From NCBI RefSeq assembly GCF_988242995.1, contig NZ_OZ547044.1: a DNA stretch of 64,000 bases; one strand, 5' to 3'. Positions within the stretch are counted from its first letter, which is position 1, and every line of letters begins with the position of its first letter. This document shows, one piece after another, positions 42,001-48,000 of this stretch. Source of the stretch: a plasmid. The position numbers were made by a program.

Positions 42001-45000
42001 CCGGATCGGTCTGCTCAACGTCCTGCTCGCTGAAGGGCTCAATCTGGGCCTGCGTAAGATGGCGGAAGCTACAAACACGCATGATTACTGGCAGCTCTCA
42101 CGCCTTGCCCGCTGGCATGTTGAAAGCGAAGCCATGAACCAGGCATTGGCAATTGTGGTGGCCGCGCAGGGTAAACTGCCGATGTCACGCGTCTGGGGGA
42201 TGGGCACGTCAGCATCGAGCGATGGTCAGTTTTTCCCGACAGCGCGGCATGGCGAAGTCATGAACATGGTCAATGCCAAATATGGTTCTGTTCCCGGCCT
42301 CAAAGCGTATACTCACGTAAGCGACCAGTTCGCGCCATTCGCTTGTCAGTCGATCCCGGCGACCGTGAGCGAGGCACCGTATATTCTCGATGGACTACTG
42401 ATGAACGAGGTCGGTCGCCATGTTCGCGAACAGTATGCCGATACAGCAGGATTCACCGACCATTTGTTCGGAGCCAGTAGCCTGCTCGGCTACAATCTCG
42501 TTCTGCGAATCAGGGATCTGCCATCGAAGCGGTTGTACGTATTTAATCCCGATACGACCCCCAGGGAGTTACGCAAGTTGGTAGGTGGAAAAGCCCGGGA
42601 GGATCTTATCGTTGCGAACTGGCCTGATATTTTCCGTTGTGCCGCGACGATGACCGCTGGCAAAATCAGGCCCAGCCAACTCCTGCGCAAGCTCGCTTCT
42701 TACCCACGACAAAACAACCTTGCAGTTGCGCTTCGTGAAGTTGGTCGTATTGAACGGACCCTTTTCATTATTGAGTGGATCCTGGATACGGACATGCAGC
42801 GGCGTGCTCAGATCGGTCTTAACAAGGGAGAGGCCCACCATGCGCTCAAAAATGCGCTCCGTATCGGGAGGCAGGGGGAAATTCGCGATCGCACGACAGA
42901 GGGGCAGCACTACCGAATCGCTGGGCTCAATTTATTGACTGCGGTGATCATTTACTGGAATACCGTCCATCTTGGTCATGCCGTCACGGAGCGGCGGAAC
43001 GAAGGGTTGGATGTTCCCCCTGAATTTCTTCCCCACATATCCCCATTGGGCTGGGCGCACATTCTACTGACTGGCGAATATCTTTGGCCCAAGGAACCGA
43101 AAGCTTAGGGTGTCATTTCGCCCTCAGCCGGAACCGACCCCTTTAAGTGATACCATTTTAAGCAGTACCACTTAAATGTTACCATCAGGACAAAAAATGT
43201 TCGTTTTTGGTTACCTCCGGGCATCAACATCAGAGCAGGATGCCAGCCGGGCAAAAAATGCACTGAAGGCATTTGCAAACCAACATGGCCACCGTATTGC
43301 TGGCTGGTATATCGATAATGTCTCCGGTACGACAATGAACCGCCCTGAACTGATCAGGCTTCTTGGTGATGCGGAACCTGGTGATGTGATCCTCATTGAA
43401 CAGGTCGACAGGCTTACTCGCCTCGATGATGCTGGCTGGGAGACACTAAGAAAGCAAATTACCGACAAGCAGCTGGCCATCGTCAGTCTTGATCTACCGA
43501 CCAGCCATCTGGCGCTATCCAGCACAGTAAGTGATGACTTTACCCGAAGCATGCTGAAGGCCGTAAATGGAATGCTGCTGGATATGCTGGCCGCTATTGC
43601 CCGAAAAGATTACGAAGATCGTCGACGTCGTCAGTCAGAGGGAATCAGTAAGGCGAAAGCTGAAGGGAAATACCGGGGCCGGGTGGCTGATGCGCAGAAA
43701 CATGAACTGATACGTACCCTGCGCCTGGTCAACGGAAAATCGCTGCGCGAAACAGCTCGCCTGGCTGGCGTTTCTAAAATGACAGTGATTCGGGTCTGCT
43801 CCAGCGCTGATAAATAACACTTACATCGGGTAGAATTCGTTTGTCCGGTATCAGTATCAGTGATTATCTGAGACAGAGCGGGACTGGCCGAACGACTGAA
43901 AGGCATTTGTGATCTATGAAAATTAATTTATACGGGGAAGGTATGAAAACAGTGTCAGGAGTGTTGGTGTATCTCGCGGTATGTTTTCTGGTATTTACAG
44001 CATGGCTGATCTGCTTTGCGCAGCACGCTCCGTTTCCGGGAGGCGAACAAGCTTTGACTTTAACTTATCTACTTAATGTATTCTTCGTATATTTTTTGAT
44101 GGTACCCTTTATCCACTTCTTTCAGGTAGAGACATATTACAAAGCTTTGATGGGCCTAGCTGATGGTACTGAACATATAATACAGTTCTATGAGGAAGTG
44201 CCTGTCATGTTGATATACCTTTTATCCGCAGGTTTAACTTTGTTCTTTTATTTCATACCCTTAAAACTTTTCTTTAATAAAAAATTAAAATTACAATTAC
44301 AGCAAAAACAAAGGAAAGATATTTAGACGGCTAATACCTGAGATGAATAAGTCAACAACCAACGGATATCCGTCAACGAGATCAGTTTAACCAATTTATT
44401 GAACACTCATAACCCAAATAATCATGCGACTGCGCGCTGCCACGGAAACGCGTAAAAATCAGAACTGAAAGAGGGAAGACGGATGACGGACCAGAAACAC
44501 AATGATGCCTATTCGCGCTGGTTAATTGAATAGGCAGACAGAGAAGAAAAGGAAGAATTCTCGCGTTCGTTCAGCAGACTGAAATGCATCCTGTTAAATA
44601 TCGTGGTGTTCGGTATCATTTCACTGGGCGTTTGCCTGGCTGTTCAGCAGGTGACGCATTGACATCCACCCCGGCACACAGGGCGAGAGCATGAGTTGAT
44701 TTTTTGTTGTTTTTCATGATGAGATAGGTGGCTCGGCCAATGCTGAACAAATTTGAGATCGCATTTTCAGCACACCCCTGTACAAAATACGAGCAGAAAA
44801 TGCAATTGCACCTTGGGATGACAGTGGTTAAATTTTTTTGGTTAACATGTCAGTAACTCATGCTCTCGCCCTGAGTTCGCACCTTCCGCTACTTCGACAG
44901 TTGTGTAAAAAACCGTGCTCGTTGATAACCAGAAGGTGCGGTACTGAAAAACTATTGCTTGCAACAATTTGCTCAAACGTCACTATGGCTTTTCATGGTT

Positions 45001-48000
45001 TTTAACCCATTTTTGCATCTGGTCGATTTCTGGTTGCTGGGCTTTGATAATATCTTCTGCCAGCTTTCGCATTTCAGGATCCTTACCAAATTTAAGCTGC
45101 GTTTCAGACATTTGAATGGCACCTTGATGGTGGGCAATCATCCCTTTTGCAAAGGCAACATCTGGATCAGAGGACATCACTCCTGCCATCATGTCGTTAT
45201 GCATACTTTTCATACCAGACATCAACTCTTGAGAAGCTGGAGACATGGAATGGTGATCGCCCATCGGCATGGTTTTGTCAACCGCAAAAACAGCAACAGG
45301 AGACATTAATAGGGCGGTCAGTATCAATATTTTTTTGTTCATTTTACTACCTCTTAAAGAAAACTCGTTCGCTGAGAAGTATTTACTTATCTCACTTCAA
45401 GTTACCTGACTATTGGACTTTGGCCTACAAGAAACTCGAATTATTCAGAGTGTAGATGGCGTTGTTTCCCAAATCAACCATCAAGCCACGACTGCCCCAG
45501 CCCCAAGTGACCGTTACACTCGGCGCTTTCTGACAGGCAGACCAAGGGGGTTCAGTTTGTTGATTGCACCAACATACGCCATCACTTCCCCTACCTGACC
45601 GTTGTATGTTCGCAGACTGATTTTGCCCGTCATCAACTGCTTGAACCGATACATCGCCGTCTCTGCCTGCGAGCGACGGTGATATCCCGATATCTTCTTC
45701 CAGTGCACCAGCCCTTCCTTGCGCATCACCAGCACCGCCTCATTTACGCCCCAGGGCAAGATCGCGAACGTTTTTTGACCAAGAAAAACAGGTTTGACCC
45801 TGCGATCCAGCTGTGATCTTATGCTCCTTTTTCAGGAGTGCCTTCATGTCTATTGATGCTGTTTTTGCTCAGTTTTTCGATGATATTCCCGACCCTCGCC
45901 AGCATGCCAAGATTTATTATCCTTTCTACGATGTCCTGTTTCTCACCGTCTGCGCAGTGATAGGTGGCGCAGACGGGTGGGAAGATATTGAAGATTTCGG
46001 TGAGGTTCATCTTCCTTGGTTTCAATCCAAGGGGCTGTTTAAAAATGGTATTCCTGTCCATGACACCATCGCCAGGATCATCTCCGGTATCAAACCAGAG
46101 CCGTTTCAGGCCGCGTTCGTACGTTGGACTCAAGCCATCAACCAGCACACCGAAGGCGCCTTGGTCGCTATCGATGGCAAAACCCTGCGCAGTTCCTATA
46201 ACCGTGAAGATCGAACGTCGACCATTCACATGGTAAGCGCCTATGCCGCCGCTAATAAACTGGTGCTCGGACAGATAAAAACCGACGCCAAGTCCAATGA
46301 AATCACCGCCATTCCCGACTTGTTGGCGTTGCTCGACATCAAAGGCTGCCTGGTATCCATCGATGCGATGGGGTGCCAAACCGAGATCGCCGAGACCATC
46401 CTCCAGCAAAGTGGCGATTACTTGTTAGCCGTCAAAGGCAACCAGCCCAAGTTGTTCGAGGCGGTCCGGCAAGCCCTGGCCCCGCTGGCGGCTACCCCAT
46501 TATGCGCAGCAACGATGACTCTTGATAAGGCTCATGGGCGCATCGATGGTCGTGAGTACCATATCATGGCGGCGGGTGAGTTAGCCGCCCAGTTTCCTCA
46601 TTGGGAACAGTTGCGCAGTATTGGCGTGGCCATCTCTTATCGCATTGAAAAAAGGGAAAAAATCACTATTGAACAGCGTTATTACATCAGTTCCAAAGCA
46701 CTGACGCGGGATGAGTTTGCACGATCGGTGCGTGGGCACTGGGCCATCGAAAATAGCCTGCACTGGGTGCTGGACGTCACGATGGGCGAGGACGATTGCC
46801 CAATTTATCGCGGTGATGCCGCAGAGATCCTTGCGTGCATCCGGCACATGGGGCTGAACATGCTCAGGGCTGAAACTTCACGCAAAGCGAGCATCAGACG
46901 GAAGCAAAAGATTGCAGGAATGAGCAGTGAATACCTGGAAAAGGTACTCAATGGGGGGGTAAGCGGGAACCCCAGAAAATTCCGCCATTCCGCATTGTGG
47001 AATTTTTTGGGGGGGTGGTCCGCGGCATGACGACCCGCCAAAGGCTACCGCATCTATCTGAGGCGCTGTGGCGCGACGCTGAAACCCCGGGGAATTCCGC
47101 TACTCCAGTTCCAGGTCCGCAATAGTTCGTCCAGGTCGGGTGGCGTACGCCGGAAACGCCGATTTTTCCGCAACCGTTTCTGCGTTGTCGGCAAGGTGGT
47201 CTCAGAGAGCGCTCAAGAAGCGGTTTTTCTCGTATGTTTAGCTACGGTGGCCTAGGAGCCTGCGCGGCAGAAGCCAAATCGGCGGAAGATCGAGGACGAT
47301 ACGGGGATGGCTGCCAGTTACCTTCCTTACCGACCCGACCAATCCTATCTGCTGCCCCCTTCTCTGGGAGAGTGGCTACCTGAAGGGCATCTTGCCTACT
47401 TCATCAGCGAGACTGTCGATACGCTGGACTTGAGCGCATTCCACGCCCGGTATGCCGGCGGTGGTCCGGGCAATCAGCCGTTTCATCCGGCGATGATGGT
47501 CAAAGTGCTGATCTATGGTTACGCGAGCGGCGTCTTCTCTTCGCGCAAACTAGCCAGGAAGCTGTACGAGGATGTCGCGTTGCGTGTGCTGGCCGCTGGA
47601 AACTTCCCGGCCCACCGCACGCTGAGTGACTTCCGTGCCCTACACCTGACCGAGCTTGAGAATTTGTTCGTTCAGGTGGTGCAACTGGCGCGCGAATGTG
47701 GGCTGGTGAAGCTTGGCACGATCGCGGTCGACGGCACCAAGGTAAAAGCCAACGCCAGCCGCCACAAGGCGATGAGCTATAAGCGCATGAAGCCGGCCGA
47801 GGACGAATTGCATTGCGAGATCAAGGCGCTGCTTGATCGCGCCAAGGCTACCGACGACCAGGAGCGTAACGAGCCGGAGCTGGACATTCCTGCCGAGATT
47901 TCTCGCCGCGAGAAGCGCCTGGAGGCGATCCAGGCGGCAAAGGCGCGCCTGGAAGCGCGCCAGCGTGAAGCGGACCAGGCCCGGGGGCGCAGCGAAGACG

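Follow-up and report, generated by a model that had tools for sequence, protein, structure and literature searches.

The DNA analysed here is a 64,000-nt plasmid stretch (contig NZ_OZ547044.1, assembly GCF_988242995.1), referred to as the window, and all coordinates are those of the window. At 43916–45342 lie two open reading frames (ORFs): a forward one of 136 amino acids (aa), termed orf136, and a reverse one of 119 aa that encodes a DUF305 protein. The original prediction described them as a membrane protein and a DUF305-like secreted protein, markedly lower in guanine-plus-cytosine (GC) content than their neighbours, bounded by mobile elements and possibly acquired from a different genomic background as a small metal-tolerance cargo. 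The description of the two products was confirmed, since orf136 contains three hydrophobic segments, each of ~20 residues, and the second protein matches Pfam DUF305 (PF03713; E = 3e-20, 73.2 bits, cut-off 27) and carries a signal peptide. The low GC was likewise borne out by windowed analysis, which gave 41.6% over 43916–45342 against a window mean of 55.5%, a value as low as is found in only 0.6% of equal-length windows of the 64 kb. The individual genes have 35.5% (orf136) and 42.8% (DUF305 gene) GC, and the flanking genes, which they do not resemble, have 51–62% (resolvase, 51%; Tn5403 tnpA, 56%; ISKpn6 transposase gene and blaKPC, 61%). Further A/T-rich patches occur at 4974–5485, 23302–24456 and 62723–63533, and the GC minimum of the window, 31.8%, lies near 62927.

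The locus is already known as the pKpQIL context of Tn4401 and blaKPC, a region among the most familiar to clinical microbiologists, and so is its DUF305 gene, p019. Positions 43800–45500 are 100% identical to pKpQIL and are present in 366 plasmid records, mainly from Klebsiella. Over 39382–57500, 18,119 bp aligned to pKpQIL with a single mismatch, which falls in KPC codon 272 (His/Tyr) and separates KPC-2, encoded in the window, from KPC-3. The annotated order in pKpQIL is IS26, a Tn5403-family tnpA, a recombinase, a hypothetical protein and a DUF305 protein, followed by the ISKpn31 transposase, ISKpn6, blaKPC, ISKpn7, and Tn4401 tnpA and tnpR.

The DUF305 gene is p019 (pKpQIL_p019, WP_004152400.1), the source of the 11,109 m/z marker for KPC plasmids. 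A Sec-type signal peptide with n-, h- and c-regions is predicted at residues 1–20, with cleavage between VFA and VD, leaving a predicted mature protein of 99 aa and 11,107.7 Da ([M+H]+ 11,108.7). The peak at ~11,109 m/z in time-of-flight (TOF) spectra recorded after matrix-assisted laser desorption/ionization (MALDI) of pKpQIL-type KPC producers has been assigned to a cleavage product of P019, whose gene adjoins Tn4401 (PMC10525285, PMC8698427, PMC12116874). The agreement of the two masses identifies the gene and indicates that its product is secreted with removal of the signal peptide. No sequence difference separates the window gene from P019 of pKpQIL-type, Tn4401a-bearing KPC plasmids. Plasmid pBIC1a has the same gene order as the window, and there the gene is named 'p019 of ISKpn31' (PMC6286996). 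P019 has commercial use as a proxy for KPC in MALDI-TOF, and in the clinical literature it figures as a hypothetical protein.

Several lines of evidence place P019, with good confidence, in the CopM family, and we regard both family and fold as shown. The Pfam match covers profile positions 63–150 of 151, equivalent to one DUF305 repeat, and the NCBIfam profile for the CopM family metallochaperone (NF049983) is matched over positions 2–73 of 73 with 123.1 bits (cut-off 90). Current NCBI names of close homologues include 'CopM family metallochaperone'. With phmmer, P019 matched PDB entries 7VW0, 7VW1 and 7VW2 at E = 1e-35, with 68–70% identity over the mature domain. An AlphaFold2 model built with 42 homologues contains three helices (residues 35–55, 60–85 and 89–116), with predicted local distance difference test scores of 96–99 in the core. 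The best Foldseek match of this model was 7VW1 (template-modelling score 0.89–0.92, root-mean-square deviation 1.0–2.1 Å), entitled 'dimeric periplasmic protein bound with cuprous ions' in the PDB, and the matches that followed were Cu- and Ag-bound CopM entries. The 7VW structures are reportedly those of Yang et al. 2022, as referenced by PMC11836926. Except for its last residues, the 7VW sequence is that of the DUF305 gene adjoining silE in the sil clusters of K. pneumoniae and Enterobacter plasmids. The MxxHH motif of P019 (M68-I-A-H71-H72) aligns with both halves of CopM and with the 7VW protein; the 42 homologues show no variation at M47, H48, M51, M68, H71, M78 or M109, and at least 90% of them retain H72. 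The ratio of nonsynonymous to synonymous substitution rates (dN/dS) between p019 and its Serratia counterpart is ~0.11, indicating purifying selection. By homology to these relatives, P019 most likely binds Cu(I) and probably also Ag(I), and the protomer would pair into a six-helix bundle.

Comparison with characterized systems defines where P019 stands within this family. The 7VW protein, which IncHI2 and IncFIB(K) plasmids encode in their sil/pco clusters, shares with P019 the three-helix protomer, the MxxHH motif and Met/His positions, and a signal peptide. However, the two genes are only ~73% identical in nucleotide sequence and represent separate lineages, that of P019 having its nearest relatives in Serratia/Yersiniaceae; and while the 7VW gene adjoins silE, p019 is unlinked to silE/silRS and is carried within an insertion sequence (IS). 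Synechocystis CopM (copMRS operon; PDB 5FEJ and others) belongs to the same DUF305/CopM family, with 38–40% identity between P019 and each of its halves. Both proteins are periplasmic with a conserved MxxHH motif, and the Serratia homologue of P019 mirrors the placement of CopM beside a copper two-component system. CopM, in contrast, contains two DUF305 repeats per chain and is copper-induced, whereas P019 has a single repeat, is presumably dimeric and has lost its regulator in the window. CopM is a tight Cu(I) binder and by itself gives copper resistance (PMC4335983). SilE and PcoE resemble P019 in being small, secreted and Met/His-rich, their genes stand beside the DUF305 gene in sil clusters, and periplasmic Cu/Ag buffering is likely a shared role. 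They nonetheless form a sequence family unrelated to P019, and tblastn with SilE found no match in the window.

The two A/T-rich genes are separated by the boundary of an insertion. An ISAs1-type terminal inverted repeat (IR) of ISKpn31, CAGGGCGAGAGC(A/G)TGA, starts at 44679, and its inverted copy ends at 56918; on either side stands a 10-bp target site duplication (TSD), CCCCGGCACA (44669–44678 and 56919–56928). The left IR and its TSD thus fall between orf136 and the DUF305 gene. When the empty site was reconstructed by joining 44279–44678 to 56929–57328, it was found uninterrupted at 99.9–100% identity in two plasmids; a third was 100% identical across the ISKpn31 site, with an IS26 inserted elsewhere in the stretch. 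The segment 44679–56918 is therefore a single insertion, ISKpn31 carrying Tn4401, into continuous plasmid backbone, and the 10-bp duplication indicates that ISKpn31 moved as one unit. The mobile elements expected on both sides of the gene pair are present, a resolvase gene on the left and an IS5-family remnant on the right, although the former belongs to the backbone and the latter is cargo inside ISKpn31 (Table 1).

Table 1 Features in and around the A/T-rich segment, in window coordinates
Feature	Position	Strand	Basis or remark
IS26 copy cutting off the left end of Tn5403	39382–40201	-	Aligned to pKpQIL IS26
Truncated Tn5403	40202–43141	+	tnpA 40211–43108; Tn5403-family transposase by pKpQIL annotation
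Serine recombinase (resolvase) gene	43176–43817	+	Pfam Resolvase, E = 1e-24; plasmid backbone
orf136, small membrane protein of IncF backbone with three transmembrane segments	43916–44326	+	Sequence
Backbone spacer	44327–44678	.	Ends in left 10-bp ISKpn31 target duplication CCCCGGCACA (44669–44678)
ISKpn31 outer left module, 195 bp, resembling a miniature inverted-repeat transposable element (MITE), ISAs1-type	44679–44873	+	Left IR CAGGGCGAGAGCATGA; inverted IR copy 44862–44873
IS21-family istA-like relic, 77 bp	44875–44951	.	86% identity to istA of IS21-like elements
p019 (pKpQIL_p019, WP_004152400.1), secreted single-domain CopM-family/DUF305 protein	44983–45342	-	Profile, structure, mass
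IS5-family (ISAs4-like) remnant	45423–45752	-	Terminal IR and 3' end of transposase gene
Inner complete ISAs1-family IS, 1,254 bp	45753–46952 and 56865–56918	+	Own left IR CAGGGCAAGATCGCGAAC at 45753
Tn4401 (ISKpn6, blaKPC-2, ISKpn7, tnpA, tnpR)	46953–56859	-	Known IRs; inside the ISKpn31 transposase gene
ISKpn31 right tip and right TSD copy	56865–56928	+	Right IR ends at 56918; CCCCGGCACA at 56919–56928, then backbone
Expected uninterrupted ISKpn31 junction (no Tn4401)			AAGGTACTCAATGCTGGCCTCAACAAATT

On the left of this boundary, orf136 is, by comparison with other plasmids, a native gene of the IncFII(K) backbone. Together with the same resolvase it occurs at 99.9–100% identity in plasmids that have neither ISKpn31, Tn4401 nor Tn5403, so that the foreign origin proposed for the whole segment does not extend to it. 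The region 43831–44241, which comprises the upstream part and most of the coding sequence of orf136, has 68–72% DNA identity to a segment that IncF plasmids of Klebsiella commonly carry. From M10 onward the protein aligns without gaps, at 52% aa identity, to a 122-aa hypothetical IncF protein whose gene sits between a DNA-binding-protein gene and hha. Because this alignment begins at M10, and the ATG at 43943 is also preceded by GGAAGG, a Shine–Dalgarno-like sequence, the true start is likely at 43943 (127 aa). A dN/dS of ~0.26 supports a real gene under purifying selection. Only 13 homologues were found, all hypothetical; Pfam, NCBIfam, PHROG and PADLOC gave no match for orf136 and no metal-related domain. 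The predicted metal connection is therefore supported for p019 only, through the CopM profile, the 7VW1 identity and homologues next to silE and cusRS-like genes. Most likely, the product of orf136 is a small accessory protein of the inner membrane that belongs to the plasmid backbone. In K. variicola p118_A, ISKpn26 interrupts orf136 and p019 is intact, and orf136 is thus dispensable. At 44483–44662, in the spacer beyond orf136, the reading frame MTDQKHNDAYSRWLIE*ADREEKEEFSRSFSRLKCILLNIVVFGIISLGVCLAVQQVTH is broken by a TAG at codon 17, would encode a hydrophobic helix at its C terminus and stops 7 bp short of the ISKpn31 target site. It may represent either the pseudogene of a small membrane protein or a gene that starts further downstream. 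From ~44476 on, the backbone is ~98.5% conserved in many of ~1,000 matching IncF-type plasmids.

On the right of the boundary, ISKpn31 without Tn4401 amounts to 2,328 bp and is a composite. Previous work treated it as a plain IS with a passenger gene (PMC6286996); p019 as that passenger, and Tn4401 as lying inside another insertion, also feature in the accounts given by PMC6286996 and by PMC6764390, the latter citing Partridge 2014. We likewise began from a simple IS with a passenger, and revised this to a compound element after the inner left IR at 45753 and a matching Aeromonas contig were found. The element consists of the 195-bp MITE-like end, 879 bp of cargo (the istA-like relic, the DUF305 gene and the ISAs4-like remnant) and the inner IS of 1,254 bp. 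The transposase gene of the inner IS starts at 45846 and would encode 378 aa if intact, with Pfam DDE_Tnp_1_assoc and DDE_Tnp_1 domains; its last nine codons are replaced by Tn4401. The uninterrupted Tn4401 target site, searched for by exact match in 100,044 GTDB species representatives, was found only in Aeromonas popoffii CIP 105493, where a 1,223-bp repeat contig is 99.9% identical to the inner IS and begins exactly at the inner left IR; this IS does not contain the ISKpn31 cargo. Neither PLSDB nor complete E. coli genomes contained an uninterrupted ISKpn31, and the GTDB representatives yielded only the cargo-less A. popoffii IS. ISKpn31 shares with ISAs12 and the A. popoffii IS, both of the ISAs1 family, the CAGGG... 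IRs, the 10-bp duplication and the 378-aa, two-domain transposase, and the identity of its inner IS to ISAs12 is 91%. It differs from these two in that the unit that moved is compound. 'ISKpn31' can thus be broken down into an IS of the A. popoffii type, a MITE-like end and a gene of the Serratia type.

The ISAs4-like remnant is 87.9% identical to A. salmonicida ISAs4 over 45457–45745. In A. popoffii, ~1.1 kb separate an internally deleted ISKpn31-type IS (6048–7930) from ISAs4-like sequence, and the two are oriented relative to each other as they are in ISKpn31, which hints that the junction of the remnant with the IS was put together in Aeromonas. Both ISKpn31 (44679–44873) and Aeromonas ISAs12 (positions 1814–2038 of its record) begin with a left IR followed by an inverted IR copy ~200 bp inward, so that their left ends form a self-contained MITE-like end pair ahead of the transposase part. 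ISAs12 lacks the 40 bp with which the inner IS begins, including the inner left IR that corresponds to 45753.

Judged by its relatives, p019 is foreign DNA, a Serratia-type gene on an Aeromonas-type IS, and for this gene the predicted origin in a different genomic background stands. The closest named homologues of P019 are found in Serratia aquatilis (86% aa identity) and a Serratia sp. (80%), followed by Sodalis and Acerihabitans. DNA homology to S. aquatilis is confined to 44971–45378 (84.6% nucleotide identity), and because it stops at 45378, at most ~40 bp of native upstream DNA remain. In the S. aquatilis chromosome, genes for a response regulator and a CusS-type kinase are followed by the p019 homologue and then by a MerR-family gene, and a palindrome resembling a CusR box, ATGACTGAATTGTCAT, lies 110 bp upstream of the homologue, as judged against the CusR consensus. 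Genes neighbouring DUF305 homologues include silE–silRS and cusRS-like genes. A 511-bp module of the window (44875–45385) is 92.6% identical to metagenomic contigs of small Rep_3 plasmids, which encode an 89%-identical P019 homologue. Such a plasmid may have carried the gene on its way from the Serratia-like source to ISKpn31. In the Rep_3 contigs the p019 homologue occurs alone, with parA/parG and a gene for a hexapeptide-repeat acetyltransferase, and it is also found on a 6.5-kb contig. These contigs share with ISKpn31 the IS21 relic downstream of the p019 homologue.

Expression of p019 is high and apparently constitutive. RNA sequencing of pBIC1a gave 1,840 reads per kilobase per million for p019, compared with 8–20 for the adjoining transposase genes (PMC6286996), and the 11,109 peak is unaffected by culture medium, as PMC8698427 relates with reference to Cordovana et al. 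The gene is probably transcribed from a promoter in the adjoining ISAs4-like remnant. Capture by the IS stripped p019 of its copper-responsive promoter.

Based on these findings, we propose a plausible history and function for the segment. It is probable, in our judgement, that the A/T-rich 1.4 kb comprises two unrelated pieces juxtaposed by insertion and that its DUF305 gene, p019, encodes a CopM-type copper protein. The IncFII(K) backbone accounts for 43142–44678, with the resolvase gene, orf136 and the spacer. ISKpn31, which starts at 44679, moved as one unit, and Tn4401 with blaKPC entered its transposase gene later. After export by Sec and signal-peptide cleavage, three-helix P019 protomers are expected to pair as in the homologous 7VW0–2 structures and most likely bind periplasmic Cu(I), and probably also Ag(I), via their conserved Met and His residues, including MxxHH. 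P019 would then be a CopM-family protein that buffers copper in the periplasm or, as a chaperone, passes it on. In its native setting, whether a Serratia-like chromosome or a sil cluster, the gene is presumably under CusRS/SilRS-type copper control; IS capture would have swapped this inducible control for high, apparently constitutive expression. The link of p019 to the CopM family and to a Cu(I)-bound structure is one that the open-access p019 literature we searched does not make, and it would not surprise a specialist.

Alternative explanations differ in how the two genes came together and in what P019 now does for its host. We judged it highly improbable that orf136 and the DUF305 gene form one metal-tolerance cargo from an A/T-rich donor, dropped between two mobile elements. 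Both are indeed low in GC, adjacent, and have mobile-element genes on either side; however, they are convergent and 656 bp apart, with the ISKpn31 left IR and target duplication (44669–44679) between them. Insertion-free plasmids possess orf136 and the resolvase without p019; conversely, orf136 is missing where p019 is found in Serratia, sil clusters and small Rep_3 plasmids. Moreover, orf136 has no metal-related domain. An operon or joint cargo of the two was ruled out on the same evidence of convergence, intervening IS boundary and separate occurrence. It is a serious possibility that p019 encodes a competent copper binder that is nonetheless a neutral hitchhiker, expressed by accident from IS sequence and bringing no gain in tolerance or fitness to Klebsiella or E. 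coli. Such a role would fit the single ancestral ISKpn31::Tn4401 arrangement in all copies of at least 99% identity, the many KPC plasmids without p019 (PMC10525285), the loss of the native copper-responsive promoter and partner genes, and the fact that the hosts already possess CueO, CusCFBA and often pco/sil. Against it, CopM alone, when constitutively expressed, partly restores copper resistance to Synechocystis (PMC4335983), and P019 is so abundant that its MALDI peak is dominant, which could mean an appreciable capacity for buffering (PMC10525285, PMC6286996). In addition, no disrupted full-length p019 alleles were noticed among the plasmid matches, although the lineage is too young for this to carry much weight.

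P019 could also serve metal acquisition or delivery, as a metallophore or as a chaperone to a partner in the outer membrane or periplasm, or handle another metal, rather than detoxify copper. CopM is also extracellular, and peptide chemistry has led to the suggestion of a metallophore function, possibly with transfer to OprC (PMC11836926, PMC4335983). We nevertheless think this quite unlikely, because homologues adjoin efflux or resistance regulators (silE–silRS, cusRS-like) and not uptake genes, and the ISKpn31 cargo contains no partner gene. The reading that we favour, with p019 encoding a CopM-type copper protein, in turn has to be set against a series of unfavourable observations. No CusR-like box within three mismatches was present in 44601–45900, and no sil, pco or cus partner of p019 in the 64 kb, where the only match to a sil protein was the DUF305 gene itself. 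A promoter and terminator scan of 43800–45900 revealed no strong sigma-70 promoter upstream of p019. Promoter matches in this region were fewer than in shuffled sequence, and a relaxed scan yielded two candidates only, each matching at 8 of 12 positions; the best for p019, the outward-facing TTGATT-17-TACACT (45477 to 45449, in the end of the ISAs4-like remnant), is correspondingly weak. The one ISKpn31::Tn4401 arrangement implies that a single ancestral event together with plasmid descent, and not selection for p019, underlies the spread of the gene. In one survey 57% of KPC-positive Klebsiella were without p019 (PMC10525285), so the gene is dispensable to KPC plasmids. P019 was stated by the authors of the pBIC1a study to have no homology to proteins of known function (PMC6286996). 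In the open-access literature searched, no paper joined p019 with DUF305 or CopM, and no experiment tied P019 to copper. A measurable metal-tolerance benefit in present hosts is, in our estimate, possible yet doubtful. The stronger proposal, that abundant constitutive P019 is a working periplasmic Cu/Ag buffer giving pKpQIL-type KPC plasmids a selective edge, appears unlikely. Such an edge could arise under host copper stress, on Cu/Ag-treated hospital surfaces or devices, or by shielding disulfide-bonded periplasmic proteins (e.g. KPC) from copper-catalysed mis-oxidation; if so, the diagnostic marker would be a co-selected metal-tolerance determinant.

Tn4401 is flanked by a 5-bp duplication, TCAAT (= ATTGA), at 46948–46952 and 56860–56864. 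All p019/ISKpn31 copies of at least 99% identity in PLSDB and E. coli genomes carry Tn4401 at this same point, which indicates a single ancestral event. The genes p019 and blaKPC are located on separable elements, which explains the limited sensitivity of p019 as a marker.

Upstream of the segment, the IS26 terminal repeat stops 9 bp ahead of the start codon of Tn5403 tnpA, and the left end of Tn5403 has been lost to IS26 (see also He et al., PMC5142620). The 38-bp right IR of Tn5403 (43104–43141; GGGG...TAAG on the reverse strand) overlaps the tnpA stop codon, and homology to the insertion-free plasmid picks up directly past it. The resolvase gene is therefore outside Tn5403. Its product, WP_004152402.1, is identical in the K. 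grimontii IncFII plasmid NZ_CP117735, where the resolvase gene and orf136 follow parA and no adjoining Tn5403 tnpA is annotated or detectable. The idea that the resolvase and the two A/T-rich genes are Tn5403 cargo was ruled out by the end of the right IR at 43141 and by this plasmid. Three similar motifs, TTAAGTGATACCA, TTAAGCAGTACCA and CTTAAATGTTACCA, lie at 43142–43185, upstream of or overlapping the start of the resolvase gene, and may be resolvase-binding subsites; the Tn5403 insertion point is directly at their edge.

A second IS26-truncated Tn5403 with its right IR is located at 32603–35542 (tnpA 32612–35509). It is 99.9% identical to the copy at 40202–43141 and abuts a Tn3-family tnpA fragment (35511–37346). 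The occurrence of two identical IS26–Tn5403 junctions in one window suggests IS26-mediated duplication or cointegrate formation. By blastn with pKpQIL IS26, the 64 kb contain at least seven IS26 copies in both orientations, starting at 10365, 15775, 18655, 22076, 25082, 39382 and 60999. Between the two Tn5403 copies, 37389–39267 comprises a pspF fragment, a QnrB-type pentapeptide-repeat gene (37917–38561) and, interrupted by IS26, a gene for a short-chain dehydrogenase. This resembles the usual qnrB context, and the plasmid likely confers quinolone resistance besides KPC-2.

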